A stretch of DNA of 64,000 bases from Spirulina sp. (GTDB lineage: Bacteria; Cyanobacteriota; Cyanobacteriia; Phormidesmidales; Phormidesmidaceae). The notes beneath the pieces were generated by a model, which was not told the DNA's origin, ran no database searches, and saw nothing but the letters and a program-made list of their open reading frames with translations. Where the stretch lies: positions 32,001-96,000 of the forward strand of contig JBIPSI010000015.1 in assembly GCA_044070495.1 (NCBI GenBank), given 5' to 3'. Each line of letters opens with the position of its first letter. Position 1 is the first letter of the stretch. The position numbers and the translations under genes were made by a program. Shown here piece after piece: positions 38,401-54,420 of the stretch.

Positions 38401-39165
38401 ACCCAGCAGGAGCGGCGACAACAACTCACCGAAGCCCAAACTCTGTGCCAGCTTCAGGCTCAAGAACTGCCCGACCCGCTGCCGGAAATCCCCCCCGACA
38501 CTGACCTAGAGGAACTGCGAAAGGAACTACGTTCTCTCCAGCGACGGATGGAAGCCCTGGAGCCTGTCAACATGCTGGCCCTGGAGGAATACAACCGCAC
38601 CGAAGAACGCCTCAACGACCTGAGCGACAAGCTCTCCACCCTAGAGGAAGAGCGCACCGAACTGCTGCTGCGAGTGGAAACCTTTACCACCCTGCGGCGC
38701 AAGGCGTTCCAGGAAGCCTACGATGCCGTGGACAAAAACTTCCAGACCATCTTTGCCGAACTCTCCGACGGCGATGGCCACCTGCAACTGGAGGATCCCG
38801 AAGACCCCTTCAACGGCGGCCTGAATCTGGTGGCCCACCCCAAGGGCAAACCCGTGCGACGGCTGGCCTCCATGTCTGGGGGAGAAAAATCCCTGACGGC
38901 CCTCAGCTTCATCTTCGCCCTCCAGCGCTATCGGCCCTCCCCCTTCTACGCCTTCGACGAGGTGGATATGTTCCTGGATGGGGCCAACGTGGAGCGGCTA
39001 TCCCGCATGATTAAGCACCAAGCCGAACAGGCCCAGTTCATTGTCGTGAGTCTGCGCCGCCCCATGATCGAAGCCTCCCAACGCACCATCGGCGTTACCC
39101 AGGCGCGAGGGGCTTACACCCAAGTGCTGGGCATTGACCTAGAAACCCAAAGTGCCGCGCCGTAG
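35443..39165 (+). CDS. smc: Chromosome segregation protein SMC
   Basis: GPNGSGKSN, VLQGD, coiled coils, hinge GRVTFLPL / GAMTGG, MSGGEKS, FDEVD. Confidence 0.98.
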   Translation: MHIKRVELSHFKSFGGTTQVPLLPGFTVISGPNGSGKSNILDALLFGLGLASSKGMRADRLPDLVNQGQMSRRTTSEASVTVTFDLSDVPPEFFLKDAADLMEEAHRAASEADGNGDGSAASGANGQNGNGKKNGNGNGSTADSRLVPLAINHEWSVTRRLRVTSQGTYTSNYYINGEPCTLNDLHEQLQRFHIYPEGYNVVLQGDVTSIISMNSRERRQIIDELAGVASFDRKIDQARGKLDAVREHEDRFRIVERELQTQLERLAQDRQKAEKYQKLRATFQDKSQWEAVLVWRQQQRQIDQLQQAIAKGETEATNLAQAITQADQAVVALEAELATLNARIRAMGEDEHLALQAKVATHEAELRQLQRQEQETRTAANQASAQLRDTEIALQQHQRTLAQLQREIEEQSTREIVTLTQSRDQVQQTLEERRQATNEIASASQAWVQQQTELRHAIETLQSALEPQRAEQIRLQERRHQLEQQIQVQQGQLTALQAEDVLGGGTAPDLSQQLERAKAEIQATAEKISAAEAELAVQRETQTRLLKEQRDKQRQLDKLEAQTQAMQESQGTQATKLLLDSGIKGIEGLVAQLGKVEPRYQVALEVAAGARLGYLVVANDKVAAQGIDFLKQRRAGRVTFLPLNKIRAPKFTPVPDWKRPDGFLDYAADLIDCDPRYRDIFAYTFGSTVVFDRLEMARQHLGDFRIVTLDGEVLETSGAMTGGSLNQRSGSLHFGTVEPAESEEAQALRQRLSDIDVLLERCERNLQTTSTTLQTLTQSLITQRQQYREMQLQGEQQQTQQQQLAQRRSQIQTQLQQAQQEFAAAETRLQEIARVLPTQESEIAQKRSELEVLEQSQTHSEWQTAQAAVRQLEQQLAERQAALQQAERHIQTRQNQRQQLEITIQQAQQTIVTIRQQQGEREQALAQIKQQQEGLNQEIAQLRQAMAVLDQTLAAEKANRDQLEARLRDQRTQKQQQEWQRQKLLETQQERRQQLTEAQTLCQLQAQELPDPLPEIPPDTDLEELRKELRSLQRRMEALEPVNMLALEEYNRTEERLNDLSDKLSTLEEERTELLLRVETFTTLRRKAFQEAYDAVDKNFQTIFAELSDGDGHLQLEDPEDPFNGGLNLVAHPKGKPVRRLASMSGGEKSLTALSFIFALQRYRPSPFYAFDEVDMFLDGANVERLSRMIKHQAEQAQFIVVSLRRPMIEASQRTIGVTQARGAYTQVLGIDLETQSAAP

Positions 39166-39205
39166 CGGTTTGCTCCGAACCCTCGGCCATGGGGAGGGAT
39201 CTCCC

Positions 39206-40261
39206 CTAGAACGCCATAACCTGAATGAGGGTGAGGCTGGTGAGGGCTAAAAACAGCCAGGACAGCCCCGCCAGCAGCAGCGGTTTGAGGCCCAGGTTCA
39301 CCAGCTTAGACAGGTAGGTTTCTAGACCCATGGCGGCGAGGGCCATACAGAGCAGGACTTGGTTGACCTGGGCCACGGCAGCCTTGAGGGCGGTGGGAAA
39401 AATCTGCAAACTATTCAGCAGTACCAATCCAGCAAAAAACAATACAAACCAGGGAATCGGTAGGGTTTTGGGTGAACCGCCATGGGCTTGAGATCCCCGC
39501 GCCTGCCAGCCTAGACCCAACAGAATCGGCACAATCAACAGCACGCGGGAGAGCTTGGCCACGGTGGCGATGTCGCCGCTGGCGGTGCTGTGCTGAAAGG
39601 CGGTGGCAATCACCTGGGCGACTTCGTGGATAGAAGCTCCGCACCAGAGGCCAAAGGTTTCGGGCGAAAGCTGTCCCAATCCTGCGATTAGGGGATAACT
39701 CACCATGGCCAGGGTGCCGAATCCGGTGATGGTGGCGATGGCGTAGGTCATGTCTTCTTCGGAACCATCCACCACGGCATTGGTGGCCACGATGGCCGAG
39801 GCCCCACAGATGGAGGTGCCCGCCGCAATCAGCCGCGTCAGTTTGGGGTTCACCTGCAACCGCTTGCCTAACCAGGTTGTGAGGTAAAAGGTGCTGACGG
39901 TGCTGGAGACAATAATCGTTAACCCCACAGGGCCAACGGCCAAAATTTCCGCCATGCTGAGCCGCAAGCCCAACAAAATTACCGCCAGCCGCAGAACGCG
40001 CTTCATCGCCAGTTGAATGCCGGGACGATAGACCCCAGGCAGGGGAACCAGTTGACGCACCGCAATCCCCAACAGCACCGCCACCAGCAAGGGGTTCAGC
40101 AGCTTGATCCCCGCACTATGGCTGAGGTGGCCAATTCCCAACGCCAGGGCCGCCAATAATCCCGTCAACCCCAGACCGGGAAGCCAAGCCTTCAATTGGG
40201 CTGTCCAGGAGAGAGAGGCCGAAGCCGGAGATGGAATATCCGTTTTTGCAGAAACTTTCAT
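39206..40261 (-). CDS. YeiH/UPF0324 family membrane protein (putative sulfate exporter)
   Basis: LRLAVILLG, GTSICGASA, GASIHEVAQV, KLSRV, PWF motifs. Confidence 0.92.
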   Translation of the reverse strand: MKVSAKTDIPSPASASLSWTAQLKAWLPGLGLTGLLAALALGIGHLSHSAGIKLLNPLLVAVLLGIAVRQLVPLPGVYRPGIQLAMKRVLRLAVILLGLRLSMAEILAVGPVGLTIIVSSTVSTFYLTTWLGKRLQVNPKLTRLIAAGTSICGASAIVATNAVVDGSEEDMTYAIATITGFGTLAMVSYPLIAGLGQLSPETFGLWCGASIHEVAQVIATAFQHSTASGDIATVAKLSRVLLIVPILLGLGWQARGSQAHGGSPKTLPIPWFVLFFAGLVLLNSLQIFPTALKAAVAQVNQVLLCMALAAMGLETYLSKLVNLGLKPLLLAGLSWLFLALTSLTLIQVMAF

Positions 40262-40285
40262 GGTTCAGTCCTTGAGGGGAAAGCA

Positions 40286-40568
40286 GTAGGGTGGGCACTG
40301 CCCACCATTGGGCTGGGATTGCTCTGGGATTCTGTATCGCCAGAGTGTAGGTTGATCGGCGCGAAGAGCAGTGGGGTGGGCAGTGCCCACCATTGGGCTG
40401 AGAGAGGTAGGTTGGGTGGCGCGAAGCAGAACCCAACACAATCGGCGCTTGAATTGGGGCACAAGTCCGGATTGAGGACTGGGTTTCGCGTCGTCTTTTA
40501 CTCAACCGATAAAGCTGGAGATAGCGTAGGCTCTGGGGTTGGGTTTCACTTCGTTTCACCCAACCTAC
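40286..40568. repeat. Composite cluster of REP-like palindromes
   Basis: Two GGTGGGCA.TGCCCACC units and a GTAGGTTGGGT...CCCAACCTAC pair. Confidence 0.75.
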
Positions 40569-40673
40569 GAATCTAGAACCTCGGTTTCTCAGCCATAAAG
40601 CCAGTCATCTCGACAGAGCAGCAACCCAGCAACCGGGGTTCTGTGTTGCGTTTCGTCTAAAGGACTTGTGGGC

Positions 40674-41402
40674 CTAAACCACAATAGCCAGCAGGGAAAA
40701 CACCAGCAGTAAGGCCATCACCATGCGGCGAAAGTGGGCTTCGTTGACGCGCTTAAAGCAGAACTGACCTAGCAGCAGCCCCATCGCAAAGACGGGAACA
40801 AAGCTCAGGAAAAGCTGCCATACGGCGATGGACAAAATGCCGCCGAGCCAAAAGGAAACCAGGGCTGTGGTCTGGGTGAAGGCAAAAAAGATAATGAAAT
40901 TGGCCCGATTCGCCGCCGCCGCATTGTTGCCCGACATGGAGTACAGCACAACGGGCGGGCCACCAATTCCGGCAAGGCCAGTCAGGAATCCGCTGACGGC
41001 TCCGACCAGAGAGGTCAAGGACACATGGGCGCGGTTGTAGTGGCTTTTGCCCGACCACAGCAGCAGCACAAAGCTGAGGATCAACCCGCCAATCAGCCGC
41101 CGCATTAGCACAGGCTCTAGCAGGGAGAGAAAGTGCGCCCCCACCGGAACCATGATCATGGCACTGAGCACTAGGGGCAACACCTCGCGCCACAGGGTTT
41201 TGGGAATAGCGGCGGGTACCAGCCCCGCTCCGGCAATCATCTCCAGCAAAAGCACCGTGGCCACCACCTGCTGGGGTGGAAAGAACAGGCTGAGGGCAGG
41301 GGCGAGGATCATGGCGGAGCCAAACCCGGAGAAGCCACGGGTAAATCCGGCAATGGCCACAATGCCCCAACTCACCAGCCAAACCCCGATGCCCATAATC
41401 AT
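40674..41402 (-). CDS. Sulfite exporter TauE/SafE family protein
   Basis: AGFTRGFSGFG, GFLTGLAGIGGPPVV motifs, about eight TMs. Confidence 0.9.
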   Translation of the reverse strand: MIMGIGVWLVSWGIVAIAGFTRGFSGFGSAMILAPALSLFFPPQQVVATVLLLEMIAGAGLVPAAIPKTLWREVLPLVLSAMIMVPVGAHFLSLLEPVLMRRLIGGLILSFVLLLWSGKSHYNRAHVSLTSLVGAVSGFLTGLAGIGGPPVVLYSMSGNNAAAANRANFIIFFAFTQTTALVSFWLGGILSIAVWQLFLSFVPVFAMGLLLGQFCFKRVNEAHFRRMVMALLLVFSLLAIVV

Positions 41403-41503
41403 CCTCTGCCAGACGGAACATTAGAAAAGGATCCCCACGGTATCAGCTTAGTAACAGGAGTGAGGTGGAGTAGGGATCCAAATACTTCAAAACCTAGGAG
41501 CTT

Positions 41504-41581
41504 GTAGGTTGGGTGGCGCGATAGCAGAACCCAACATAGGGGCTGCGGCTGTTGGGTTTCGCTTCGCTGCACCCAACCTAC
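41504..41581. repeat. GTAGGTTGGGT...ACCCAACCTAC REP-like palindrome
   Basis: Same family as 8160-8243. Confidence 0.8.
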
Positions 41582-41588
41582 GAGTGGG

Positions 41589-42695
41589 CTACAAGTTGGC
41601 CGTTGCCAAGGCTGGGGCTGGCTCCACCTTGGCCCCAAAGGTGGCGTTTAACCCCTGGGCAATGTTGCCGAAAATTTGGCTGAGGGGGGCATCGGGTTCA
41701 CAGAGGGGCAGGGGCACTCCGGCATCGCCCTGGGCGCAGACACGGGGGTCGATGGGCACCTGGCCCCAGAGGGGAACCGAGAGTTCCGCCGCCATTTGGG
41801 CACCGCCACCGCTGCCAAAGATGGGGGTAGGTTCGCCGCAGTGGCCGCAGAGGAGGTAGCTCATGTTTTCCACCAGGCCCAGCACGGGCACCCCCACCTG
41901 GCGGAACATATGGACGCTGCGCCGCACGTCGGAAATGGCCACCTGCTGGGGGGTCGTCACCATCACCACGCCGCAGATGGGGCTTTCTTGGACGATGGTA
42001 ATCTGGGCGTCGCCCGTGCCGGGGGGCAGGTCAATCAGCAGATAGTCCAACTCGCCCCACTCCACATCATGGAGAAACTGGGTGATGATTTTGTGCATCA
42101 CCGGGCCACGCCACGCCAAGGGATGATCCCGTTCCGCCAGCAGCCCCACGGACATGAGCTTGATGCCGTGGGCCTCTAGGGGTCGGAACCGCTGCCCGGT
42201 GGGGGTGTCGATCACCTGCACCTGGGATTGGCCCAGGCCGAGCATTTGGGGCACATTGGGGCCGTAGATGTCGGCATCCAATAAACCTACCTTGGCCCCG
42301 GTTTTGGCTAGGGCAGCGGCTAGGTTCACCGCCGTGGTGGATTTGCCCACACCCCCTTTGCCACTGGAAACCGCCAGGGTGGTGCGTACCCCCGGAATGG
42401 TGCAGAGTTCGGCGTAGGCTTTTTTGCACCAGGGCAGTTGCGCCAGGGTAGTTTGCACCTGGTCTTGCAGGGCCAACTGGTGCCGCCCCACATACAGCCG
42501 CAGATAGACGTAATCGCCCACCACCCGCAGGTTTCGCACCATGCCCAGGCTCACCAAGTCGGTGCCCAGGGTGGGTTCTTTGAGGGTTTTTAGCAGGGCC
42601 ACCACCTCGGATTTACGATTCAATTCCTCAGGGCTGGGGGGCGCTTCGGCGGGGGCAGCATCGGCCCGATGGAAGGGAGAGGTGTGGCTAGACAT
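41589..42695 (-). CDS. Mrp/NBP35 (ApbC) iron-sulfur cluster carrier
   Basis: N-terminal DUF59-like region, GKGGVGKS, DADIYGP, WRGP, DLPPGTGD, ENMS.LLCGHC; ATG overlaps the HEAT gene stop. Confidence 0.93.
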   Translation of the reverse strand: MSSHTSPFHRADAAPAEAPPSPEELNRKSEVVALLKTLKEPTLGTDLVSLGMVRNLRVVGDYVYLRLYVGRHQLALQDQVQTTLAQLPWCKKAYAELCTIPGVRTTLAVSSGKGGVGKSTTAVNLAAALAKTGAKVGLLDADIYGPNVPQMLGLGQSQVQVIDTPTGQRFRPLEAHGIKLMSVGLLAERDHPLAWRGPVMHKIITQFLHDVEWGELDYLLIDLPPGTGDAQITIVQESPICGVVMVTTPQQVAISDVRRSVHMFRQVGVPVLGLVENMSYLLCGHCGEPTPIFGSGGGAQMAAELSVPLWGQVPIDPRVCAQGDAGVPLPLCEPDAPLSQIFGNIAQGLNATFGAKVEPAPALATANL

Positions 42696-43665
42696 TGGAG
42701 GTCTCCGGCATAGACTTCTGGATGGTGTCGATGGCCCGCTGGGAGAAAATCCGCACGTCCATATCGGGATCGTGGAGGGTTTGGCTGAGGGCGGGCAGGG
42801 CATCGGGGTTGGAAAGCTTGCCTAGGGCGGTGGCCGCATCCCGGCGCACATCGGAGTAGTCGTCGGTGAGCGCTTTGATCAGGGCAGGCATGGCCCGTTC
42901 ATCCGCCACCTTTTGCAGAGCACGGGCGGTAAACTTCCGCACCTGCCATTCCGGGTCTTCCATCGCCTGCACCAGGGCGGGGATAGACTCAGCATTCGCC
43001 AGCAAGTCCAAGGACTGAGCCGCATTGCGCCGCACCTGCCAATCGCCATCGTTGGTCAGCAATTCACAGAGTAGAGGTACCACGCCCTCATCACTGAGGT
43101 GTCCCAGGGTGAGGGTCGTTGACCGTCGCACCGCCTCAGCGGGATCCTTCGCCAGGGCTAACGCAGGTTCGCAACGCACCACCTGGTTCAGGTAGCGCAG
43201 GGTGGTGACAGCGGCCTCCCGCAGGTCAGGATTTTCCGACTCGAAGAAGGGCAAAATGAAGGGCAACGCCTGGGCATCGTGGATTTTCCGCAGCAGCACC
43301 AGCACGTTCAGTTGGGCGTGAACGTTGCCCGTTTGCAGCAAATCCAGCAGCTTCATCAGGTCGTTGGTAGACACCAACTCCTTCAGGGCCGATAGCGCCT
43401 CATGGCGGACATTCTCATGGACCGAACCCAAACAATCCATCAGCGGATTAATCGCCACCGGATTAGCAAATTCCCACAGGCTGGTGATGGCAATTTCCTG
43501 CACCATGGGGCTTTCGTCGTACAGCGCCCCAATCAACGGTTCGATAGCATCTTCATCGCCCAGGTGTTGCAGGGTTTTTACCGCCACCAAACGCTCATCG
43601 AGTTCGGACGATTTCAACATTTCAACCCATTGGGCAACTTCGGGATCCATATCCGTGGAATACAT
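42688..43665 (-). CDS. HEAT-repeat (PBS-lyase-like) protein
   Basis: Repeated LxxALxDxxxxVRxxAAxAL units. Confidence 0.92.
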   Translation of the reverse strand: MYSTDMDPEVAQWVEMLKSSELDERLVAVKTLQHLGDEDAIEPLIGALYDESPMVQEIAITSLWEFANPVAINPLMDCLGSVHENVRHEALSALKELVSTNDLMKLLDLLQTGNVHAQLNVLVLLRKIHDAQALPFILPFFESENPDLREAAVTTLRYLNQVVRCEPALALAKDPAEAVRRSTTLTLGHLSDEGVVPLLCELLTNDGDWQVRRNAAQSLDLLANAESIPALVQAMEDPEWQVRKFTARALQKVADERAMPALIKALTDDYSDVRRDAATALGKLSNPDALPALSQTLHDPDMDVRIFSQRAIDTIQKSMPETSNV

Positions 43666-43709
43666 AAGGCAGGTGTCCTAAATGACGGCAAGGAAAAGGA
43701 GCAGAAAAG

Positions 43710-43803
43710 AGGGAACAGGGGATAGGGAACAGGGGATAGGGAACAGCAAGAGAAATCTATCTGTCACCTGTCACCTGTCACCTGCCACCTGTCACCTGTT
43801 ACC
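43710..43803. repeat. Heptamer tandem repeats (STRR-like)
   Basis: Alternating GGAACAG/GGGATAG units, then six TGTCACC-like units. Confidence 0.8.
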
Positions 43804-44026
43804 TAAGCAAGAAGGGAATTTGTACCGTAATAGCACCCGTCGGGCATTCCTTTTCGCAGGGTAGGCAGAACCAGCACTCGTCGTATTTCATGTAGGCTTT
43901 GCCCGTTTCGGGGTTTTTCACCAGCACATCCAAAGGGCAAACTTCAATGCAGGCGACACATTTTTCAAGGCATTTGGATTCGTCCACAATCACTGGGACA
44001 TCCACACGCTGAGTTGTCAAAGCCAT
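43799..44026 (-). CDS. 2x[4Fe-4S] ferredoxin, AprB-like
   Basis: CLEKCVACIEVCP and ECWFCLPCEKECP. Confidence 0.92.
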   Translation of the reverse strand: MALTTQRVDVPVIVDESKCLEKCVACIEVCPLDVLVKNPETGKAYMKYDECWFCLPCEKECPTGAITVQIPFLLR

Positions 44027-44067
44027 AGCAAAAGTCCTGAGATTTAATAAGGGTGAATAAGGTCTTT

Positions 44068-44319
44068 CCGGCTCCCCTCTCCTCCCTGGGCTACTAAGTA
44101 CACACATCTTGTTCTCATGCCGTCATACCTGGGGGATCCCCCTAAATCCCCCTTGGAAAGGGGGACTTTGACTCCGATCCCCCCCTTAAAAAGGGGGGCT
44201 AGGGGGGATCAACCCTAGGAACTAAGCGGAATAGAGGCTTATGTATAAGCGGCAGCCTTCCTGGGAGAGGGGGTGGGGGTGAGGTGAGGGATTGTCATGG
44301 TGGGCAGTGCCCACCCTAC
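44068..44319. repeat. Nested repeat complex between flavoprotein and ferredoxin genes
   Basis: CCCCTCTCC/GGAGAGGGG repeat split by a ~167-bp element that itself contains the CCCCCTT palindrome; GGTGGGCAGTGCCCACC unit at the end. Confidence 0.7.
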
Positions 44320-44322
44320 GGT

Positions 44323-46026
44323 TTACCGTACGGCGACGTCGTAGACTTCTTCCTTCAAATTCACGTCTACGATGTAGGGTTCTACGACCCGCTTAAACAG
44401 TTCCATTTCGCCGTTTTCGCCCTTCTTCAGGTTGACGTGGCAGAACCATTCGGCATCGTTCTTTTCGGGATAATCCAGCCGATAGTGGTAGAGGCCCCAG
44501 CGGGTTTCTTTGCGGAAGAGGGAGGCACGGGCGGCCATTTCGGCGCAGTCGCGGATGAAGTGGACTTCCATGCAGCGCATCAGTTCGTGGGGATCGCTGG
44601 CACCCATCACGTTCAGGTCGCTTTCGTAGGCCACAAACTTTTCGAGGCCAATGTCCATCTTGTGGGGCGACTTGGGCGGTTGCAGATAGTCGTTCACCAG
44701 GCGGCGCAGCTTGTATTCCACCTGGGTATGGGGTACGCCGTTGGGCTGGTTCAGCGGGCGATAGATGCGCTCCTGCTCGGCGGAGAGGAAGTCGGCATCG
44801 GGTTCCACATGCTCTAGATCGCGCACGTAGTCCATGGCGTTTTCCCCGGCAATGCGGCCATAGACGAAGGCCCCAATCATGTAGTTGTGGGGCACACTGG
44901 CCATATCGCCAGCGGCATAGAGACCGGGCACCGTGGTTTCGGCCCGCTCGTTCACCCACACCCCAGAGGCGCTGTGGCCGCTGCACAGGCCAATTTCGGA
45001 GATGTTCATTTCCACGCCGTGGGTGCGGTAGTTTTCGCCCCGGCCTTCGTGGAAGCGCCCCCGGCTGGGACGCTCGTTGTCCCACAGCACCCGCTCGATT
45101 TCGGAAATCGTGTCGTCGTCCAGGTGGTACATCTTCAGGTGGACGGGGCCTTTGCCGGAGTTCAGCTCTTTGAAGACCTCCAGCATCATTTGGCCACTCC
45201 AGTAGTCGCAGCTAATGAAGCGGTGACCCTCGGCGTTGGCGGTGTAGGCTCCGAAGGGGCTGGCCACGTAGGCGCAGGCGGGGCCGTTGTAGTCCTTAAT
45301 CAGCGGGTTGATCTGGAAGCATTCGATGTTGGTCAGTTCCGCCCCGGCATGGTAGGCCATGGAGTAGCCATCCCCGGCGTTGGTGGGGTTTTCGTAGGTG
45401 CCGTAGAGGTAGCCGGAGGCAGGCAGACCCAACCGACCGCAGGCTCCGGTACAAAGCACGACGGCCTTGGCTTGAATTACCACCATATTGCCGTTGCGGA
45501 CATCCAGGCCCACCGCCCCGGTGACGCGACCATTTTGCACCATCACGCGGGTGGCCATGACGCGGTTGGTAACATTGACCTTATGGCGCTTCACCTGGCG
45601 AGCGAGGATTTTTTTCAGATCCTTACCTTCAGGCATGGGCAGCACGTATTTGCCGACCCGGTGAACCTGCTTGAGGTCGTAGTTGCCTTCGTGATCTTTT
45701 TGAAATTTGACCCCCCAGCTTTCCAGTTCTTGAATCACCTCAAAGCCTAAACGTCCGGTTTCGTAAACGGCTTTTTGGTTCACAATGCCGTCGTTGGCAA
45801 TGGTGATTTCACGAACGTATTGCTCTGGGGTAGAATTGCCGGGAATCACAGCGGTATTGACGCCATCCATGCCCATGGCAATGGCACCACTGCGACGAAT
45901 ATTGGCCTTTTCCAAAATCAACACATCGCTTTCGGGGCTGGCCTGCTTTGCTTTAATGGCGGCCATGGTGCCAGCGGTTCCACCACCGACTACCAAAAAA
46001 TCCGTTTTCAGATACTGAATATTCAC
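44323..46026 (-). CDS. Fumarate reductase/succinate dehydrogenase-superfamily flavoprotein, AprA-like
   Basis: VVGGGTAG, EKANIRRSGAIA (no covalent-FAD His), NAGDG, GLYAAGD, RKETRWG...RLDYP; GTG start with GAGGA RBS. Confidence 0.9.
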   Translation of the reverse strand: MNIQYLKTDFLVVGGGTAGTMAAIKAKQASPESDVLILEKANIRRSGAIAMGMDGVNTAVIPGNSTPEQYVREITIANDGIVNQKAVYETGRLGFEVIQELESWGVKFQKDHEGNYDLKQVHRVGKYVLPMPEGKDLKKILARQVKRHKVNVTNRVMATRVMVQNGRVTGAVGLDVRNGNMVVIQAKAVVLCTGACGRLGLPASGYLYGTYENPTNAGDGYSMAYHAGAELTNIECFQINPLIKDYNGPACAYVASPFGAYTANAEGHRFISCDYWSGQMMLEVFKELNSGKGPVHLKMYHLDDDTISEIERVLWDNERPSRGRFHEGRGENYRTHGVEMNISEIGLCSGHSASGVWVNERAETTVPGLYAAGDMASVPHNYMIGAFVYGRIAGENAMDYVRDLEHVEPDADFLSAEQERIYRPLNQPNGVPHTQVEYKLRRLVNDYLQPPKSPHKMDIGLEKFVAYESDLNVMGASDPHELMRCMEVHFIRDCAEMAARASLFRKETRWGLYHYRLDYPEKNDAEWFCHVNLKKGENGEMELFKRVVEPYIVDVNLKEEVYDVAVR

Positions 46027-46153
46027 TTAACCACGTCCTCAGCTTAAACGGCAGTGAAATTGAAATCTTGGTCGATTTATCAAGGCTAGGGATGACCTTT
46101 AGGGCTATCGATAATCGCCCTCGTTTCTACGCCTCGTGTATGCAGTGTAGGAG

Positions 46154-46239
46154 AGTCTAAAATGACCATCAATACAGTTTGTAACGATGGCTACGGTTTG
46201 ATCATCACAGGCTTCTATACACTCATAAAAAATATCTAT
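46154..46239 (-). promoter_or_regulatory. Putative NtcA-activated promoter with upstream LysR-type box
   Basis: GTA-N8-TAC at 46181-46194, TAGACT 21 nt downstream on the minus strand, ATAA-N7-CTAT at 46225-46239. Confidence 0.6.
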
Positions 46240-46482
46240 CAATCCTTGAAAGCTTGATGTGTGCTGAATCCTCAGTCTCTTTGGGCTGGGTCATTGGGAG
46301 CAAATTCCTCTAGAATGGAGGCATCAAACTCGCCCTTGAATCAAGATTGGGCTATCTCAAACCATGAAGGTAAAATTTGATTCGTGAGTTGATGGATAGA
46401 TGGATTTTAGAATTACGTAGGATGCGTTAGCCTTGACCTAGGGTACGACAACATTATTCAGCGTTGATTGGCTTCGATAATC

Positions 46483-46669
46483 TAGTCTCAATAGATCACA
46501 AACATGCTCTCTTGCCGTAACCCAGCCCTCACCCTAAATCCCTCTCCCAAGATGGGAGAGGGACTTTGAAGAGCTTCCGGCTCCCCTCTCCTCCCTGGGA
46601 GAGGGGTTGGGGGTGTAGCTTGCTTCCCGTTAGGGTGGGCTGCGGGAACTTTGTGATCTACGGAGTCTA
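46483..46669. repeat. MITE-like element enclosing CCCTCTCCC/GGGAGAGGG repeats
   Basis: Imperfect 20-bp terminal inverted repeats TAGTCTCAATAGATCACAAA / TTTGTGATCTACGGAGTCTA, TA at both ends. Confidence 0.7.
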
Positions 46670-46797
46670 AAAAATTCATTTAATTCATCCTGATAACTTC
46701 CTATCAATTTAATTGCATTCAGTTTTGAGGTCTGTATTTAAGGTTAAATTTCGACCTGCATTGAGTTCCTTCCTACGCGCCCAAGACGCATCATGCC

Positions 46798-48837
46798 GTG
46801 GAAATCTATCAGCTTAAAGTTTTCCTAGAAGTGGCCCGCTGTCTCAGCTTCACCGAAGCCGCCGACACCCTAAATTTGACCCAGCCCGCCGTCAGCGCCA
46901 AGATCAAATCCCTAGAAGCTGAGTTAGAAACGCCGCTCTTTCATCGTTTGGGCCGACGAGTTGAACTCACCGAGATAGGGAATTACTTACTGGCCGAAGG
47001 GCCGCAACTGCTGGAGATGGAGCAGCGCCTCAAGGCCGAAATTGAGGAAATTAAGCAGGGAAAGCACAGTGCCCTAACCATCGGTGGTATGGCCGATGTG
47101 ATGGATCACTGGTTGCCGTCGGTGCTGTACGACTATCGGCGACTGCACCCAGCGGTGCAGACCCGCTGTGTGCAGTTCACTTCGGCGGAGGAATTGTATC
47201 GAGCAATTAAATCTGGGGAGGTAGATTTGGGAATTTCAGACCTCAGCTATGCCACCTTTGACGATTTAGCTGAAACGGCGATTGATTCGGTTCACTATTC
47301 CTTGGCCGTTTCCTCCAGCCACCGTTTAGCCCAACAACCCTGGTTGAGTTTACAAGAATTAAAGGATGAATCTTGGGTGCTGCTGCCGGAGGGTTCGCCC
47401 AGCCGCATTATGCTGCAAAAACGAATGCAGGAATTGGGGCTAGAACTGTCGGATTTTGCCCATGTGGAAGTGGTGGATTCCCTCAGTCAGGTGCGTACTT
47501 ATCTGATGCAGGGGCATTACCTCGGCTTTGTGTCCGATTTTGAGCTGCATTTAGAAAGTCAGGCTGGGCTAATTCGCCATGTGCCCCTAGAGGAATTTGC
47601 CCTAGGAAGTCCGCTTTTCTTACTCATGGCCAAGCGCCTGAATCGTGCCCTAGAATCTTCTGTACCCGGAGGATCTTCCCGGTCTAGCCTAGAAGCTGTG
47701 CGGCAGTTTGTGACGCTACTCAAAACGCGCCAAACGAGCCGTTCCCCGTTATTAGCAACCTCATCATATCCCCTAGCTCCCTCCCAGCCCGCTGCCACCA
47801 TGGCTAGGGTGCCCCAATTCCAAGCGCCCAACTTTTTGGTGCGTTCGGTTTCCCCTGGCAACACAGATACGATTCGCCTCACCATTGGCACCCAAAATCG
47901 CACCATTCAAACCATTACCGCTGGGCTAATTATTCAGCGGTTGGGCCTTCTGGAACACTTTTTGCCCCGCCACGGACGCTACAGCGGCACCCGCTACCAA
48001 ATCCGCTGGGCCGACTATAGCTCCGGTGCGCCCATTGTGGAGGGGCTGCAAACCCAACAGATTGATATCGGCATATTGGGAGACTATCCCCTACTGCTCA
48101 GCGCCCTCCCCGGTGCGGACAATCCAGCCTGCACCCGGCTGATTAGCTTTGTGGCCAGCAACCCCGACGGCACCGGAAACGACATCATCGTGCCCCACCA
48201 GTCCTCGTTGCACTGCATCGAAGACCTGGCCGGACGGGTGATTGCGGTGCCCTTTGGTTCGGCGGCCCACGGCATGGTGATGCGCTCCCTGCACCACTGC
48301 GACCTACTAGATGCCGTCACCCTCACCACCATTGATGCCTGCAACCAGTGCACCCGCCGCCCTTCTGGTTCCGCCAATCACGCCATCGACGGCTACGCCT
48401 ACTTCGCCCCCTTCCACGAAATTGCCAAACATAAGGGGCAATTTCGGCGGCTGTTGTCCCACCAACTCGATGGCCTGCCCACCTTCCACGGGGTGGTGAT
48501 TCGCGACGAACTGGCCGATCAGTATCCCGAAATTGCCGTGGCCTACCTGCGGGCACTCCTCGCCGCCCAGTATTGGTACGCCACCCAGCCCATCGCCCCC
48601 ACCTTGGTTAGCCGCTGGGTGAATATGGATGCCGCCATCGTCAGCAAAACCCTGCTGTCGGGTACAGGGGATTCCTTGGATGTGGTGTATCGCCCCGAAA
48701 CCCAACTGCGGGCCGACTGGCTCCAGGCTCACATTCAAGCGCTCAGCCAAATTGCGGGGCAAGAAACCCTGGGCCACATCAACCTAGAGGGCTGGATGCA
48801 ACCCGAATTTCTCGCCGCCGCCGTCGCCGCCCTTTAG
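46798..48837 (+). CDS. LysR regulator fused to an ABC substrate-binding-like domain
   Basis: SFTEAADTLNLTQPAVS HTH plus LysR substrate domain, then a ~320-aa domain aligning by eye with the SBP at 50754-52265. Confidence 0.9.
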   Translation: MEIYQLKVFLEVARCLSFTEAADTLNLTQPAVSAKIKSLEAELETPLFHRLGRRVELTEIGNYLLAEGPQLLEMEQRLKAEIEEIKQGKHSALTIGGMADVMDHWLPSVLYDYRRLHPAVQTRCVQFTSAEELYRAIKSGEVDLGISDLSYATFDDLAETAIDSVHYSLAVSSSHRLAQQPWLSLQELKDESWVLLPEGSPSRIMLQKRMQELGLELSDFAHVEVVDSLSQVRTYLMQGHYLGFVSDFELHLESQAGLIRHVPLEEFALGSPLFLLMAKRLNRALESSVPGGSSRSSLEAVRQFVTLLKTRQTSRSPLLATSSYPLAPSQPAATMARVPQFQAPNFLVRSVSPGNTDTIRLTIGTQNRTIQTITAGLIIQRLGLLEHFLPRHGRYSGTRYQIRWADYSSGAPIVEGLQTQQIDIGILGDYPLLLSALPGADNPACTRLISFVASNPDGTGNDIIVPHQSSLHCIEDLAGRVIAVPFGSAAHGMVMRSLHHCDLLDAVTLTTIDACNQCTRRPSGSANHAIDGYAYFAPFHEIAKHKGQFRRLLSHQLDGLPTFHGVVIRDELADQYPEIAVAYLRALLAAQYWYATQPIAPTLVSRWVNMDAAIVSKTLLSGTGDSLDVVYRPETQLRADWLQAHIQALSQIAGQETLGHINLEGWMQPEFLAAAVAAL

Positions 48838-48847
48838 AGATTACCTA

Positions 48848-49672
48848 TCAACAGGCTTCCATGCTTTTCATGGTTTCTTCGCGGATGCAGTCGAATACCT
48901 GGCGATGGAGGTCAATGAAATCCTGGGAAAGGGTGTCGTCAAAGTGTCGCGGACGGGGCAAATGGACCGGGATTTCTGACTTGATTCGGCCTGGGTGAAC
49001 GCCCATGGTGCAAATGCGATCACCGAGGAAAATGGCTTCTTCGATGTCGTGGGTGACAAAAATCACGGTGGTTTTCAGATCGTCCCAAATGCTCAGCAAA
49101 AGCTCTTGCATCATGTGGCGAGTTTGGGCATCTAGGGCAGCAAAGGGTTCGTCCATCAACAACACCGAGGGCGAATTCACCAAGGCTCGAATAATACTGG
49201 CCCGCTGCTGCATTCCTCCCGAAAGCTGATGGGGGTAGCTATTGCGGTGTTTGTACAGCCCTACCCGATTCAGGTAATCATTTACCCGCTCGGTACGTTC
49301 CGCCTTAGAAACCCCTTGAATTCTTAGGCCCATTTCCACATTTTGAAAGGTGGTCTTCCAGGGTAATAGGGAATACTGCTGGAACACAAAGCCCCGATCT
49401 GCTCCAGGGCGGGTAATCGGCGTTTGATCGACCAAAACATAGCCACTAGAGGGCTTAATAAACCCAGCAATCACATTCAGAAGGGTAGATTTACCGCAGC
49501 CCGATGGCCCCAGCAAGCAGACAAATTCTCCGGGCTGAATGGAAAGTTGAATCGAATCTAGTACGCAATTTTCGTACTGTTTTCGGCGATAGACCACCGA
49601 CAAACCTTCGACCTGTACCGATCCCTTTAGGGTGGCTCGTTGGTCTTGTTCAATTTGATGCATCGTAACCAT
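48848..49672 (-). CDS. ABC transporter ATPase (NrtD/SsuB/TauB type)
   Basis: GPSGCGKST, VFQQYSLLPW, LSGGMQQR, DEPFAALD, VTHD. Confidence 0.95.
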   Translation of the reverse strand: MVTMHQIEQDQRATLKGSVQVEGLSVVYRRKQYENCVLDSIQLSIQPGEFVCLLGPSGCGKSTLLNVIAGFIKPSSGYVLVDQTPITRPGADRGFVFQQYSLLPWKTTFQNVEMGLRIQGVSKAERTERVNDYLNRVGLYKHRNSYPHQLSGGMQQRASIIRALVNSPSVLLMDEPFAALDAQTRHMMQELLLSIWDDLKTTVIFVTHDIEEAIFLGDRICTMGVHPGRIKSEIPVHLPRPRHFDDTLSQDFIDLHRQVFDCIREETMKSMEAC

Positions 49673-49724
49673 AAACTCTCCTTGCTAATCAGTCCTAACT
49701 AGTCCGTGGGTTAGTTGTTGATCG

Positions 49725-50573
49725 TTAGCTCTGTTTTTTGATCACCCGCCAAGGCATGAGGGCGCGGGTCGCCTGATCTACCGCCCAGGAGCTAAAGGCT
49801 CCCATAAAGCCAATCAGCAGCATTCCCATCACAATGGGCGGATAGTTGGAGGTAACGTAGGATTCCCAAGTGATGTAGCCAATCCCATAACGTCCTGCCA
49901 AAATTTCGGCGGTTACTAAGCAAAACCAGGCATTACCCATACCAATCGTGAGGCCGCTGGCGATGCTAGGCATGGAGCCTGGAATTACAATGTCCTTAAA
50001 AATGTGCCAGGGATTGGCCCCTAAACATTGCCCTACTCGAATGAGAACAGTATCTCCAAGGGTACTTTCTACGCCCTTAATTGTACTGATCAAGATTGGA
50101 AAAAATGCACCGATAAAGGTGATGTAAACCATGCCGCTTTCAGCATTGGGAAACATCAAAATAGCCAGAGGAATCCAGGCCACGGCTGGAATCGGACGCA
50201 GAATTTCGAGGGGCGGCATCGTCAGATCTTCTACAACCTCAAACCAGCCCACTAAAACTCCTAATAGAACTCCTAAAACAGAGGCAATGGCATAGCCGAT
50301 TAAAACCCTCTGGATGCTAGACCAAAAATGTATCCAGGGGCTATTGGTAACAAATTTAGTCGTTGCCTTTAGAACCTCCCAAGGAGAAGGAAGAAACTGA
50401 AAGTTGATGAAGAAATTGAAGTTGATGCTGCTGAGAATTTGCCAAATACCAAAGAACAACACCAGCGATAGGGCTTGACGTAGGGGCCGATTACCCAACA
50501 CCGTCTTTGTCGCCACCGAACCGACCTGAGCCACCCACCCCATAGGATTTGGCTTGGACACCGTAACTGCCAT
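49725..50573 (-). CDS. ABC transporter permease (NrtB/SsuC/TauC type)
   Basis: LRPIPAVAWIPL, AWFCLVTAE motifs. Confidence 0.95.
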   Translation of the reverse strand: MAVTVSKPNPMGWVAQVGSVATKTVLGNRPLRQALSLVLFFGIWQILSSINFNFFINFQFLPSPWEVLKATTKFVTNSPWIHFWSSIQRVLIGYAIASVLGVLLGVLVGWFEVVEDLTMPPLEILRPIPAVAWIPLAILMFPNAESGMVYITFIGAFFPILISTIKGVESTLGDTVLIRVGQCLGANPWHIFKDIVIPGSMPSIASGLTIGMGNAWFCLVTAEILAGRYGIGYITWESYVTSNYPPIVMGMLLIGFMGAFSSWAVDQATRALMPWRVIKKQS

Positions 50574-50753
50574 TATTTTCCTCCCAAACTACTGTGGGGT
50601 CAGGCCCCTAGGGCCACTGTACGGGGACACTATCTCCGTAGTCTGTGTATTCTGCGTCACCGAAAAGACGACCTTCATGCGGGGCAGACATTCGCCTCAG
50701 CCACCCCAAAGACCTGACCTAATAGACCATCGAACGACCGACCTTAACCTGAC

Positions 50754-52265
50754 CTAGCGAGTGCCTACGAGGGCAGGCTGCTGCGCGTAGAGGCTCTGCA
50801 ATTCCCGGAAGGCCGTCAGGGTTCCCCCAGTTTGAGACGCGTAGGCTTGGGCATCAGACTCTAGCAAAAAGGCCGCTACCTCATCACCATTGCTGACAAA
50901 GTAGGAGTTTTCAGCAAACAGTTTCCAGCCATTGTTGTGGTCATGCACAAACATGGCATTGGCCGCTTGGCCTTCCGCCTGGAGTGCCGTCAACGCCTTC
51001 ACCATATTGGCAATGGAGGCAAAGTTCGTGACCGTTTCCTCACCCTGTACCCAATATTGGGCGGCCTTTTTCGGGTCTTCAATGGCTTCTCCGGTTAGGG
51101 CATCTTCCCCCGTAATTTCGTAGGATTCAGCGGTGGCGATGACATCATCGTAGTTCAGTCCCATTTCCTCAATGGCGGTGCGGAGAAAGCCGTCATCAAT
51201 CCAGTTCACAACTTCGCTTGGATCGACGGGGTTTTCAATCCTGCCAAGGCTAGTTAGGGTGGCGATACTATTCTTGAGTGCATCCATTTGTACATCGCCA
51301 ATGGTGGGATTAAGGGCCTGCAACCCAGAGGGGCCAAGGAACATATAGACCACCTCTTTTTCAATGCCAGACCACTCTTGAATTTGGGCTGAAATTCCCT
51401 CAGGATCTTCCCGGAACATTTGGTTGGCTTCTAGCACCGCCTTCAGGTAGGCCACCACAATTTCGGGATGTTCTTCGGCAAAGTCAGACCGTACGGTGAT
51501 GCCATGGAGCGTGGGGACGCCCGTTTGAGCACCATCAAAAATCTTCTTGGCAAAGCCCCGAAAAGGAAACAATTCACCGAAGGGGACAAAGTTGGCGTGG
51601 GCATCGATTTGCCCGGTGCGTAGGCTAGATCCACCCACTTCGGGGGCTTGGCTAATCAGGTTGACATCGGTTTCGGGGTCTAGTCCGGCATCGCTAAGGG
51701 CCTTCAGCATCATCCCGTGGGCGGCTGAACCAAAGGGAACTGACACCGTTCCACCCTTCAGATCCGCGAGAGATGTCACCTCGCTATCCTTGGGCACCAT
51801 CACCGCATTACCTGCGCCATTGGGACTGTAGGCCAAGGTGCCAATGAAAATCGCGTCGGAATCCTGGGCTTCCTGGGCAAATTTGATCAGGTTAATCACC
51901 GCCGGAAAGTCGCCCATTAGGCCAATATCGATTTGATCAGCCAGCATTTTATTGGTGATCGGTGGCCCAGAGGTATAGCTAGACCATTGGATGTCGTACT
52001 CGACTCCGGCATATTCGCCATCCTTAGGCAGGTGCTTTTCTAGCAGCTCTAGTTCGCGTACAGCCGCTCCACCAACTGCTGTATTAATCACCTGATCTTG
52101 GGTGCCAATGGCGATACGAATGACCTTGCCAGAATTACCTGAAGACGCTGATTCTTCGCCTTCTGCTGGAACATTTGCTGTAGAGCAAGCACCTACAAAA
52201 AGCATAGATGCCGTTAGAAAACCAGCCGTAATTTTTTGCCGAGACCAACCCATTAAGCTCATCAT
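50754..52265 (-). CDS. ABC substrate-binding lipoprotein (SsuA/NrtA type) with C-terminal extra domain
   Basis: Lipobox FVGAC, SGPP...IDIGLMGDFP, VPFGSAAH; start at 52265 inferred from RBS. Confidence 0.92.
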   Translation of the reverse strand: MMSLMGWSRQKITAGFLTASMLFVGACSTANVPAEGEESASSGNSGKVIRIAIGTQDQVINTAVGGAAVRELELLEKHLPKDGEYAGVEYDIQWSSYTSGPPITNKMLADQIDIGLMGDFPAVINLIKFAQEAQDSDAIFIGTLAYSPNGAGNAVMVPKDSEVTSLADLKGGTVSVPFGSAAHGMMLKALSDAGLDPETDVNLISQAPEVGGSSLRTGQIDAHANFVPFGELFPFRGFAKKIFDGAQTGVPTLHGITVRSDFAEEHPEIVVAYLKAVLEANQMFREDPEGISAQIQEWSGIEKEVVYMFLGPSGLQALNPTIGDVQMDALKNSIATLTSLGRIENPVDPSEVVNWIDDGFLRTAIEEMGLNYDDVIATAESYEITGEDALTGEAIEDPKKAAQYWVQGEETVTNFASIANMVKALTALQAEGQAANAMFVHDHNNGWKLFAENSYFVSNGDEVAAFLLESDAQAYASQTGGTLTAFRELQSLYAQQPALVGTR

Positions 52266-52324
52266 TAATTCATCTCCCTCAACGTTTGTCAGCCCTATTA
52301 AATCCATCGAATTTGGTGTGGGAC

Positions 52325-52385
52325 TGTAAATAGAGATACATCTTTTGTGAATCCTGCCTTTTATCCATAAAAGTAATCTTTGGAT
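52325..52385 (-). promoter_or_regulatory. Putative NtcA site with upstream LysR-type box
   Basis: Perfect TGTA-N8-TACA at 52325-52340; ATCCATAA-N7-CTTTGGAT at 52363-52385. Confidence 0.65.
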
Positions 52386-52412
52386 TAATTTTATTTTTTT
52401 ATCTATGGCTAA

Positions 52413-52443
52413 TATTCGTTGATTGATGGATAATCAACGAATA
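52413..52443. other. Perfect 12-bp inverted repeat upstream of the ABC operon
   Basis: TATTCGTTGATT-N7-AATCAACGAATA. Confidence 0.5.
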
Positions 52444-52649
52444 CCTACAGTCTGCTGATCGATCAGGCCGATGGTTGAGAGGGTGCTAATACTGGAGTAG
52501 TCTGACGGCGGGGCGTGAATGAGGTCGAGGAGCCATCGTTCACGCGAGGCGACCCATGGGGCAGACCGTAGCGAGTATCAGCAAAACGGCCAAGACCAAG
52601 GAGTCGCTACGCTAGCCTATTCCTAGGGAGATAGGGCCTTGGCCTCGGC

Positions 52650-52684
52650 AAAATAGCCGCCCATCCCGTGGAGAAATGAGCGGC
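52650..52684 (-). terminator. Putative terminator downstream of tRNA-Ser
   Basis: Minus-strand stem GCCGCTCAT / ATGGGCGGC followed by TATTTT. Confidence 0.5.
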
Positions 52685-52770
52685 CCCCAGATCTGAGGTT
52701 TGAGTAGGCGTTTTATACATTAGGGGCTTATCCGCACCCTATCTAAGCGGCCAAAAGCCTTGAACGTCAA

Positions 52771-52857
52771 CGGAGAGGGAGGGATTCGAACCCTCGTTAG
52801 GTTTGACCCTAAAACAGATTTCGAGTCTGCCGCATTCAACCACTCTGCCACCTCTCC
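52771..52857 (-). tRNA. tRNA-Ser (CGA)
   Basis: GGAGAGG acceptor stem, anticodon arm GCAGA-CTCGAAA-TCTGT, long variable arm, GGTTCGAATCC T-arm; CCA not encoded. Confidence 0.97.
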
Positions 52858-52985
52858 TGGTGGTGAGTGATATTTTACCCTCTGATTAGGTCTTTCCGGT
52901 GGAAATTCTGTGGGAAATTCCTATCAGAGGGCGTTGTACCCCCTGAACTTCTTGGTGTTGGCGACCTAGTTTCTATGGAGCCAGA

Positions 52986-53312: not shown

Positions 53313-53314
53313 GG

Positions 53315-54373: not shown

Positions 54374-54420
54374 AGGGCTTGTGTTGTGGGACGACAGGGG
54401 GGACGGCTGTCCCCATAAGT

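Follow-up and report, generated by a model that had tools for sequence, protein, structure and literature searches.

The question raised by the locus considered here is which small molecule it takes up, and what its single redox enzyme then does with it. The locus lies in a stretch of 64,000 nucleotides from the cyanobacterium Spirulina sp. (GenBank assembly GCA_044070495.1, contig JBIPSI010000015.1, positions 32,001 to 96,000 of the forward strand), hereafter called the window, within which all positions are counted. A first reading made from the letters of the DNA (the sequence-only reading) had described ten clustered genes at 39206-52340, and open reading frame (ORF) and profile searches located all ten of them (Table 1). 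Judged by profile scores, structural matches and phylogeny, the flavoprotein at the centre of this cassette is a relative of the adenylyl-sulfate (APS) and 3′-phosphoadenylyl-sulfate (PAPS) reductases that is neither an APS nor a PAPS reductase itself. The cassette as a whole is tentatively regarded, with somewhat less than even confidence, as a nitrogen-regulated unit for uptake, reductive cleavage and export built around this enzyme.

The flavoprotein is a member of the NCBIfam family NF006131/PRK08275, on which it scores 1007.6 bits over residues 1-561 (cutoff 587) and two orthologues reach 975.7 (P0121) and 861.1 bits (P0122). The database name of this family is ‘fumarate reductase/succinate dehydrogenase flavoprotein subunit’. 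In the ranking of models NF006131 is followed by NF005331, the model of MtPAPSR-type PAPS reductases (328.4 bits, cutoff 557), then by the aprA equivalog TIGR02061 (204.1 bits in two stretches, cutoff 641.75), SdhA (159 bits) and the L-aspartate oxidase (NadB) model TIGR00551 (117.6 bits, cutoff 452.75). Scores on the SdhA and FrdA models range from 57 to 164 bits against cutoffs of 541-933, the best being 163.9 against 826. The top match in the PDB is the alpha subunit of 8A8O (8a8o_A; 249.8 bits, E 4.1e-73, residues 1-552), followed by AprA at 161, 160 and 121 bits, SdhA at 85, FrdA at 76 and NadB at 64. The motif NIRRSGAIAMG of the flavoprotein aligns with ERSGAVAQG in AprA and IRSGCLAAG in 8A8O, and the two motifs quoted earlier, RSGA in the flavoprotein and ECWxC in the ferredoxin, are both present in the translations. 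Translation from the GTG start retains the GGGTAG dinucleotide-binding fold and aligns with 8A8O from residue 1; the RefSeq model of a 97%-identical flavoprotein (L081, 9061-10704) begins 20 codons later and drops the GGGTAG motif.

A search of 1.84 billion representative sequences returned a tight group at 60% identity or more, which includes a 925-amino-acid (aa) flavoprotein-HEAT fusion, below which identity drops to about 40%, and lower still lies a large group at about 31-35% whose members pass NF005331 (‘adenylyl-sulfate reductase subunit alpha’). Between phyla, members of the family remain 60-65% identical. Phylogeny was inferred with the quick maximum-likelihood version of IQ-TREE, with true AprA left out and the NF005331 group standing as the nearest named relative. 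A single clade (support 99) unites the twelve family members, drawn from cyanobacteria, actinobacteria and proteobacteria; it is nested within the group at about 40% identity, which in turn is sister to the NF005331 group (93). AsfA, and the NadB encoded in the same genome, fall outside the grouping of family and NF005331. The proposed resemblance of flavoprotein and ferredoxin to AprA and AprB rather than to SdhA or NadB is borne out by the profile scores, the PDB ranking, the ferredoxin matches and the tree. The comparison with AprA, SdhA and NadB that the sequence-only reading called for yields no grouping with SdhA or NadB by profiles, PDB matches or tree, and the objection that the protein might be one of these fails because the family clade sits beside the AprA-like NF005331 group, with NadB outside it. 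Elsewhere in the genome a true NadB is encoded (638.4 bits), and a true AprA was not found there.

Active-site residues were mapped through the PDB-search alignments, with residue roles taken from PMC2211403 and PMC10322725. According to PMC2211403, AprA polarises sulfate through four residues (Asn-A74, Trp-A234, Arg-A265, His-A398), and moves SO3 from a good leaving group to flavin N5 before sulfite is released. The equivalents of Asn-A74 (N57), His-A398 (H351, mapped through 8A8O) and His-A446 (H380) are kept in the flavoprotein, and Trp-A234 is replaced by Tyr211. Among the nucleotide contacts, Val-A273 and Gly-A274, which touch phosphate and ribose, become Ala250 and Cys251, and Leu-A278 of the adenine clamp becomes Ala255; the region of Arg-A317 (query residues 272-363) is left unaligned to 1JNR by HMMER. 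The PAPSR-specific residues Lys120, Arg121 and Ser122 align to Lys126, Tyr127 and Val128, and the lysine alone is retained. Dissimilatory APS reductase was rejected as an identity on the score below the TIGR02061 cutoff and the replacement of Trp-A234 and Arg-A265; PAPS reductase of the MtPAPSR type was rejected on the score below the NF005331 cutoff and the PAPS-specific loop, which is not retained.

The family has conserved features of its own. Across 83 members from three phyla, 235 of the 567 positions are near-invariant, and four cysteines (C236, C251, C348 and C494) that are absent from the AprA-like group are invariant. Six sequences of the group at about 40% identity were compared: C236 and C251 occur together in the one that is the family’s sister (P0131) and are both missing from the other five, a pattern that suggests a functional pair. 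The four cysteines together may form a thiol pair or provide the ligands of an extra metal site.

The partner proteins point to the same relatives. The ferredoxin finds AprB as its best PDB match (3gyx_B, E 4.5e-10), with 1jnr_B also matched and 8a8o_C at 6.3e-6. Its cluster motifs, C-x3-C-x2-C-x3-CP and C-W-F-C-x2-C-x3-CP, hold eight cysteines and, in the second motif, a tryptophan that in AprB lies along the route to FAD; ACWECYSC of AprB stands opposite DECWFCLPCE. The chain stops 7 residues past the last cluster motif, giving 76 aa from M27 compared with 150-166 aa in AprB, and the long C-terminal tail by which AprB wraps AprA is missing. M27 (43799-44029) is the most likely start, since the upstream codons fall in a repeat and the near-identical plasmid gene measures 228 nt; across cyanobacterial loci the ferredoxins are 73-97% identical. 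The HEAT protein corresponds to positions 610-896, the C-terminal part, of the actinobacterial fusion model NF010374/PRK13800, on which P0122, itself a 925-aa fusion, scores 1585 bits. In most cyanobacterial loci HEAT is followed by Mrp, whose most likely start here is M37 (gene to 42695); the plasmid orthologue is annotated at 1107 nt.

Co-conservation was surveyed in the best 80 of at least 585 relatives obtained in a scan of genome contigs, together with annotated records added up to L084. Flavoprotein and ferredoxin occur together in nearly all sufficiently long loci among the best 80. Linkage of the flavoprotein, ferredoxin, HEAT protein and the three importer genes (substrate-binding protein (SBP), permease and ATPase) is seen in cyanobacteria, across 33 actinobacterial loci and in three proteobacterial records. 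The synteny survey suggested in the sequence-only reading thus shows co-conserved core genes in three phyla. The actinobacterial order is GntR, ferredoxin, SBP, permease, ATPase and flavoprotein, the last often fused to HEAT; the proteobacterial records begin with GntR(UTRA) and continue with flavoprotein, ferredoxin, SBP, permease, ATPase and HEAT, after which two of the three have DUF971. A full-length homologue of the regulator found here occurs in 20 cyanobacterial loci, usually with an importer whose SBP is long and of the NosL type. Of these 20 loci, 12 have YeiH next to the cassette, compared with one of the 28 cyanobacterial loci that lack the regulator; the YeiH protein itself falls below the cutoff of its subfamily model TIGR00698 (194.9 bits, cutoff 232.6).

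The importer is of the SsuA/NrtA type, as had been proposed, with ATPase, permease and an SsuA/TauA-like SBP all present and a NosL-like domain added. Its components stay below curated cutoffs: the nearest NCBIfam models of the ATPase are the SaoA, taurine and nitrate ATPases, those of the permease SaoP, NtrB, TauC and SsuC, and the SBP falls short of the 163.5 bits set for TIGR01728. In the PDB the SBP is best matched by SsuA (2x26, 3e4r) and TauA (6ssy), with CmpA at just 24 bits. Its C-terminal domain (PF05573, 28.4 bits) was sought in five long SBPs of other lineages and recurs, at 19.6-25.8 bits, in the four of Acinetobacter, Paraburkholderia, Prochlorococcus and Pseudanabaena; that of Cupriavidus lacks it. 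The SBP gene most likely starts within its 517-aa ORF, at the ATG at 52265, which has a Shine-Dalgarno sequence, GAGGGAG, 8 nt upstream. The dedicated regulator of the sequence-only reading is present as a LysR-type protein transcribed divergently from the flavoprotein operon, and proves to be a fusion: HTH_1 and LysR_substrate domains occupy residues 1-280, and an SBP-like NMT1_2 domain at 408-595 lies in a C-terminal part that is 35% identical to the importer SBP (E 1e-54).

Promoters activated by NtcA follow the consensus GTAN8TAC (extended form TGTA-N8-TACA), with a -10 element about 22 nt downstream. The whole window holds four GTAN8TAC sites against 3.74 expected by chance, and because the count equals chance, it is position and conservation that decide. 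Two of the boxes lie in the cluster (46181-46194 and 52326-52339). For the importer promoter, the loci compared were those whose SBP match was at least 55% identical and lay on the plus strand; TGTA-N8-TACA stands upstream of the SBP gene in 10 of 12 cyanobacterial sequences (window included), 72-86 nt before the start, and all ten have an A/T-rich hexamer (TTAAAT, TTAATA or TAAATT) 21-24 nt downstream of the box. The flanking sequence is not conserved, and the two sequences that lack the box are Prochlorococcus loci. This arrangement of extended box and spaced -10 element matches the canonical geometry of promoters activated by NtcA. The importer operon carries a conserved canonical NtcA-type promoter, predicted to be bound by NtcA, with a putative transcript start near 52290. 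The flavoprotein-side box is kept, inside a conserved block of about 75 bp, in the window and four loci of the near clade (L001, L002, L003 and L005). At least one box occurs within 350 bp upstream of the flavoprotein in 13 of 47 cyanobacterial loci; box density there is 14 in 15.9 kb (0.88/kb) against 156 in 843 kb overall (0.185/kb), in loci that are related and not independent.

Some neighbouring genes also bear on nitrogen. An allophanate-hydrolase-type amidase adjoins the cassette in six marine cyanobacterial loci, including two of Prochlorococcus; it scores 520-585 bits on an allophanate-hydrolase subfamily model (cutoff 487), with the N-terminal domain alone covered. The amidase gene directly follows Mrp in three loci (L010, L015 and L016), whereas in Halomicronema and the two Prochlorococcus loci its neighbour is a second, TauA-like SBP. 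Past the amidase in L010, a marine metagenome-assembled genome, positions 15960-20024 encode an SUMF1/EgtB-like protein, a GTPase of the CobW type, and the beta, alpha and accessory proteins of nitrile hydratase, a putative second nitrogen-scavenging unit of that genome.

On the favoured reading, nitrogen demand would switch on the SsuA-like importer through NtcA, probably with the help of the LysR regulator, whose SBP-like domain would sense the same ligand inside the cell. The importer would take up a small sulfo-anion. The flavoprotein-ferredoxin pair, with the HEAT protein as its bound partner and with Fe-S clusters loaded by Mrp, would draw electrons from reduced ferredoxin and reductively split an X-SO3 bond into sulfite and an X moiety; X would provide nitrogen, and surplus sulfur anion would exit through TauE and YeiH. 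We infer the direction of electron flow, sulfite as the product, the substrates of the exporters and the class of the imported substrate. Since SO3 passes to flavin N5 in chemistry of the AprA type, X would be expected to be a good leaving group attached through nitrogen, oxygen or sulfur and not carbon; and since the conserved core consists of an importer and one redox enzyme with no other catabolic step, a single reaction must release a useful product. A compound yielding nitrogen and sulfite by one cleavage would explain the nitrogen control, the exporters, the amidase neighbours and the presence of the same, nearly invariant enzyme in sulfur-scavenging contexts elsewhere. The simplest candidate, and the best fit to nitrogen control, would be an N-SO3 compound of the sulfamate type, although an N-S substrate is in itself doubtful. 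A ferredoxin-driven sulfamate-type (N-SO3) reductase, releasing ammonium (or an amine) and sulfite from the N-S bond and perhaps employing C236, C251, C348 and C494 either in a thiol relay or to ligate a third Fe-S cluster, is likewise put forward as a specific proposal that is unlikely but worth stating.

Several observations weigh against this reading. Arg-A265 corresponds to Leu242, which is invariant in the 83 family members where 8A8O keeps the arginine, and Tyr-A95 corresponds to Glu73, so the N5-sulfite mechanism may not carry over; together with the four invariant cysteines, the loss of the arginine means that the chemistry may differ from that of AprA. Outside cyanobacteria the regulator is of the GntR/UTRA type, without a nitrogen signal. 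A -10 element at NtcA spacing from the flavoprotein-side box occurs in the window and is not conserved in the relatives, and a Crp/Fnr-family regulator, whose gene adjoins the cassette in two relatives and has a 72% homologue elsewhere in this genome, could be an alternative binder of the GTAN8TAC boxes. TauE adjoins the cassette in only 7 of 81 loci compared (L001, L002, L003, L006, L081, L018 and L023), and sulfite or sulfate export by TauE and YeiH is suggested by their family names. The genome has no allophanate hydrolase above cutoff to extend the amidase link, and the amidase of L010 may belong to the nitrile hydratase cluster instead. Sulfur-scavenging genes of the ssuD- and sfnB-like kinds surround the cassette in Nostoc, Cupriavidus and some other loci, a setting that points to sulfur rather than nitrogen there. 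The sequence-only reading therefore survives in part. Uptake, cleavage and export for nitrogen is upheld by the enzyme family, the co-conservation, the importer promoter and the YeiH linkage, and is weakened by the lost Arg-A265, the rarity of TauE and the sulfur-scavenging contexts. Of the two exporters it named, both Pfam families are present and YeiH tracks the LysR-SBP form of the cassette, and TauE is rarer; of the NtcA boxes, the importer box stands on its conservation, whereas the window total is that of chance and the flavoprotein-side box lacks a conserved -10 element.

An account that fits the sulfur contexts treats the cassette as a sulfur-scavenging module, in which an organosulfonate or sulfate ester is imported, sulfite is freed and assimilated by sulfite reductase, and the exporters act as overflow or detoxification valves. 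A sulfur-assimilation role is proposed for the related AprAB-like complex in the DiSCo paper (PMC8477390). The SBP is nearest to SsuA and TauA, an SsuD-like luciferase-family monooxygenase lies within 10 kb of the cassette in 8 of 84 loci and an SfnB/DszC-like acyl-CoA dehydrogenase homologue in 5 of 84, and in Cupriavidus (L084) NtaA/DmoA and a second SsuA-type SBP adjoin it. This account remains a minority possibility, as the cyanobacterial importer accompanied by the LysR-SBP regulator has a conserved NtcA-type promoter with no sulfur signal, dedicated YeiH and TauE exporters lie in or next to the operon, and the cassette is present in marine Prochlorococcus. Sulfate is abundant in seawater. 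Nitrogen could also be won by oxidation: a flavoprotein of the NadB/SdhA kind would deaminate or dehydrogenate an aminosulfonate such as taurine or cysteate and pass electrons out through the ferredoxin, so that nitrogen is kept and the C-sulfonate skeleton is exported by TauE and YeiH with neither C-S nor N-S cleavage. TauE/SafE-family proteins are named for sulfite and sulfoacetate export during the use of taurine nitrogen. The superfamily shared with L-aspartate oxidase, the missing arginine, the predicted NtcA control of the importer and the second TauA-like SBP beside the cassette in Prochlorococcus and Halomicronema all agree with oxidation, which is nonetheless judged improbable: the family is far closer to APS and PAPS reductases than to NadB, the histidine of the HPT motif that is characteristic of SdhA/FrdA aligns with Asn240 here, a low-potential AprB-like ferredoxin would be an odd acceptor for amine oxidation, and no enzyme handling sulfoacetaldehyde accompanies the cassette, Xsc being absent above cutoff from this genome.

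Two further explanations set sulfo-anions aside. The importer and reductase might handle some other small nitrogen-bearing anion, with TauE and YeiH as general anion transporters; nitrate and cyanate, too, are cargo of NitT/TauT importers controlled by NtcA, no SBP or transporter model reaches its curated cutoff, and the sulfate-binding arginine of AprA is missing. Four independent pointers to a sulfo-anion (the SsuA/TauA-like SBP, the Apr/PAPSR-like enzyme, TauE and YeiH), together with ssu-like neighbours in other lineages, make such a substrate very unlikely. Scarcely credible is the reading implied by the RefSeq and JGI names of homologues, that of a succinate dehydrogenase or fumarate reductase flavoprotein. 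The Pfam domains FAD_binding_2 and Succ_DH_flav_C agree with it, whereas the motif is RSGA instead of RSH, so that the histidine for covalent flavin adenine dinucleotide (FAD) is lacking; the scores on SdhA and FrdA models lie far below cutoff; no SdhB, SdhC or SdhD is encoded nearby; and linkage of the gene with an ABC importer recurs in three phyla.

Table 1. Features of the cassette and its promoters, with positions counted in the window
Feature	Position	Strand	Basis
YeiH/PSE-family membrane transporter (putative sulfate/sulfo-anion exporter)	39206..40261	-	PF03601, 259 bits
TauE/SafE (TSUP) family transporter	40674..41402	-	PF01925, 102.9 bits (cutoff 32.6)
Mrp/ApbC/NBP35-type Fe-S cluster carrier ATPase	41589..42695 (ORF open to 42803)	-	PF10609, 322.9 bits; FeS_assembly_P
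HEAT-repeat protein, probable flavoprotein subunit or maturation partner	42688..43665	-	HEAT_2, 212.9 bits
AprB-like 2x[4Fe-4S] ferredoxin, short form without AprB tail	43799..44029	-	8 Cys; AprB PDB matches
AprA/PAPS-reductase-like FAD flavoprotein, 567 aa, GTG start	44323..46026	-	NF006131 (PRK08275); FAD_binding_2 and Succ_DH_flav_C
GTAN8TAC palindrome upstream of flavoprotein operon	46181..46194		Within conserved block of about 75 bp
LysR-type regulator fused to SBP-like sensor domain, 679 aa	46798..48837	+	HTH_1, LysR_substrate, NMT1_2
ABC ATPase, NitT/TauT type	48848..49672	-	ABC_tran, 118.5 bits
ABC permease, NitT/TauT type	49725..50573	-	BPD_transp_1
Lipoprotein SBP, SsuA/TauA-like core with C-terminal NosL-like domain	50754..52265	-	TIGR01728, 130.9 bits; NosL PF05573
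NtcA-type promoter of importer operon: TGTATCTCTATTTACA	52297..52340	-	Box 52326-52339; -10-like TTTAAT 52297-52302

The reported absence of sat, qmo and membrane-anchor genes agrees with a family scan of the window ORFs of 100 aa or more, in which no such family appeared. A scan of 38000-54000 against Rfam gave only tRNA above the gathering score and no riboswitch, and matches to sigma-70 and terminator consensus sequences were at or below the shuffle expectation. In a survey of RNA runs the sampled words were matched at a fraction of at most 0.16 in any run. Four RNA-library runs gave contigs from relatives only (about 90% alike), which span Mrp-HEAT-ferredoxin, the flavoprotein and the ABC genes and are uninformative on transcription, strand, start sites and regulation. 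Short palindromic repeats fill intergenic regions of the cluster (46483-46669, 44066-44090, 44256-44281, 40282-40438 and 41501-41584). The first of these has inverted repeats of 20 nt at its edges, in the manner of a miniature transposable element, and explains the long divergent region of 771 bp; copies of the repeat at 46525-46615 reach a depth of about 10,858 in contigs from a relative’s RNA library.

A different form of the cassette is found in Nostocales, with a short SBP and, in eight loci, a GNAT acetyltransferase gene just 3′ of the flavoprotein (L013, L031, L032, L033, L035, L037, L042 and L045; 61-100% mutually identical); some loci of this form have SsuD-like and SfnB-like neighbours. 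The GNAT gene could mean that an amine product is acetylated in this form, which stands among sulfur-scavenging genes.

The distribution of the cassette is patchy, as it was found in 23 of 401 sampled cyanobacterial genomes and in neither of two from the same family, and Leptolyngbya sp. BL0902 (L081) carries a 97%-identical copy on a plasmid, beside IS1 genes. Next to the cassette of the window, 52771-54424 holds tRNA-Ser(CGA) followed by ORFs of 108 and 369 aa, which by eye resemble a small DNA-binding partner and a partition ATPase of the actin-like (ParM) type and have no Pfam or NCBIfam hit. Horizontal transfer is consistent with the patchy spread, the plasmid copy near IS1, and the adjoining tRNA-Ser and plasmid-partition-like genes; the last, with the plasmid copy, suggest that the cassette may have arrived on an integrated element. 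An IS630-family transposase fragment (33279-33935) lies just upstream of the SMC gene flanking the cassette. Farther away, an ORF of 1106 aa (15412-18732) encodes a class II (B12-dependent) ribonucleotide reductase that matches intein-containing proteins in its middle part and probably holds an intein.

The family is very widespread (at least 585 relatives in the contig scan) and unusually conserved, and is still annotated as a succinate dehydrogenase subunit; among those that carry it are Prochlorococcus, Nostoc, Streptomyces, Nocardia, Mycobacterium, rhizobia, Burkholderiaceae and Acinetobacter. A literature search whose coverage excluded subscription journals and bioRxiv supplements found no characterisation of the cassette or the family. 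Identification of the substrate would define a new branch of the APS-reductase family, name a nutrient that links the nitrogen and sulfur cycles, and correct thousands of annotations. If the enzyme were an N-SO3 reductase, it would represent a new reaction class and a novel source of nitrogen (and sulfur) for cyanobacteria, Prochlorococcus among them, and for many actinobacteria and proteobacteria of soil. Thanks to the conserved NtcA promoter, the question can be put to a direct test in a cyanobacterium.

Among known systems, nirA-nrtABCD-narB with NtcB and cynABDS are NtcA-activated nitrogen operons with a LysR co-activator and a NitT/TauT importer. The cassette resembles them in TGTA-N8-TACA, the -10 element about 22 nt on, the NitT/TauT importer and the LysR gene alongside; it differs in an SBP that is SsuA/TauA-like with a NosL-like domain, a regulator with a second SBP-like domain, and an enzyme that is Apr-like and not a molybdo- or sirohaem reductase. 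A parallel layout is offered by AsfAB of Pseudomonas putida S-313, in which a flavoprotein of the fumarate reductase family is joined by a ferredoxin, an SsuA-like SBP and a LysR gene in divergent orientation, although the flavoprotein belongs to a different family. In PMC4267179 and PMC2864759, the asfRABC genes for reductase/ferredoxin, SBP and LysR regulator are described as required for the use of arylsulfonate sulfur. Primer pairs for asfA from the supplement of PMC9694294 have no site with 5 or fewer mismatches in the flavoprotein-ferredoxin genes of the window or of L001-L084. A scan with the forward primer gave 118 stretches, and in 42 of 80 loci fetched these lie in an asfA gene 23-31% identical to the flavoprotein of the window; three primer-defined asfA genes have no family model in common with the flavoprotein and form a separate long branch in the tree. 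AsfA is ruled out by the primer mismatch, the low identity, the absence of a common NCBIfam model and the separate clade.

Closer likenesses are found among the APS and PAPS reductases. The AprBA complex (1JNR/2FJA, 3GYX), as described in PMC2211403, has the same fold and cofactors, and AprB, with a tryptophan in CWxC, is the nearest solved relative of the ferredoxin; here the capping-domain region with the adenine clamp is unaligned, Arg-A265, Tyr-A95, Val-A273, Gly-A274 and Leu-A278 are replaced, and sat and qmo are missing nearby. In MtPAPSR of Methanothermococcus thermolithotrophicus (8A8O; Jespersen & Wagner 2023, PMC10322725), an alpha subunit with non-covalent FAD is joined to a short beta subunit with two [4Fe-4S] clusters, likewise as here, and the alignment is full-length, with the RSG motif and the equivalents of Asn-A74 and His-A398 in common and a beta subunit that also lacks the long AprB tail. 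The neighbours of MtPAPSR are ATP sulfurylase, APS kinase and PAP phosphatase, whereas those of the cassette are the importer, HEAT and Mrp. The ‘AprAB-like complex’ of Clostridia and others, described in the DiSCo paper (PMC8477390), shares a truncated AprB-like partner, gaps in the capping domain, nitT/tauT ABC neighbours and a proposed non-dissimilatory role. On our reading that group would correspond to NF005331, a sister clade at about 31-35% identity, beside which the present family forms a separate clade that is far more conserved, belongs to aerobes and phototrophs, and has as partners HEAT and Mrp or DUF971.

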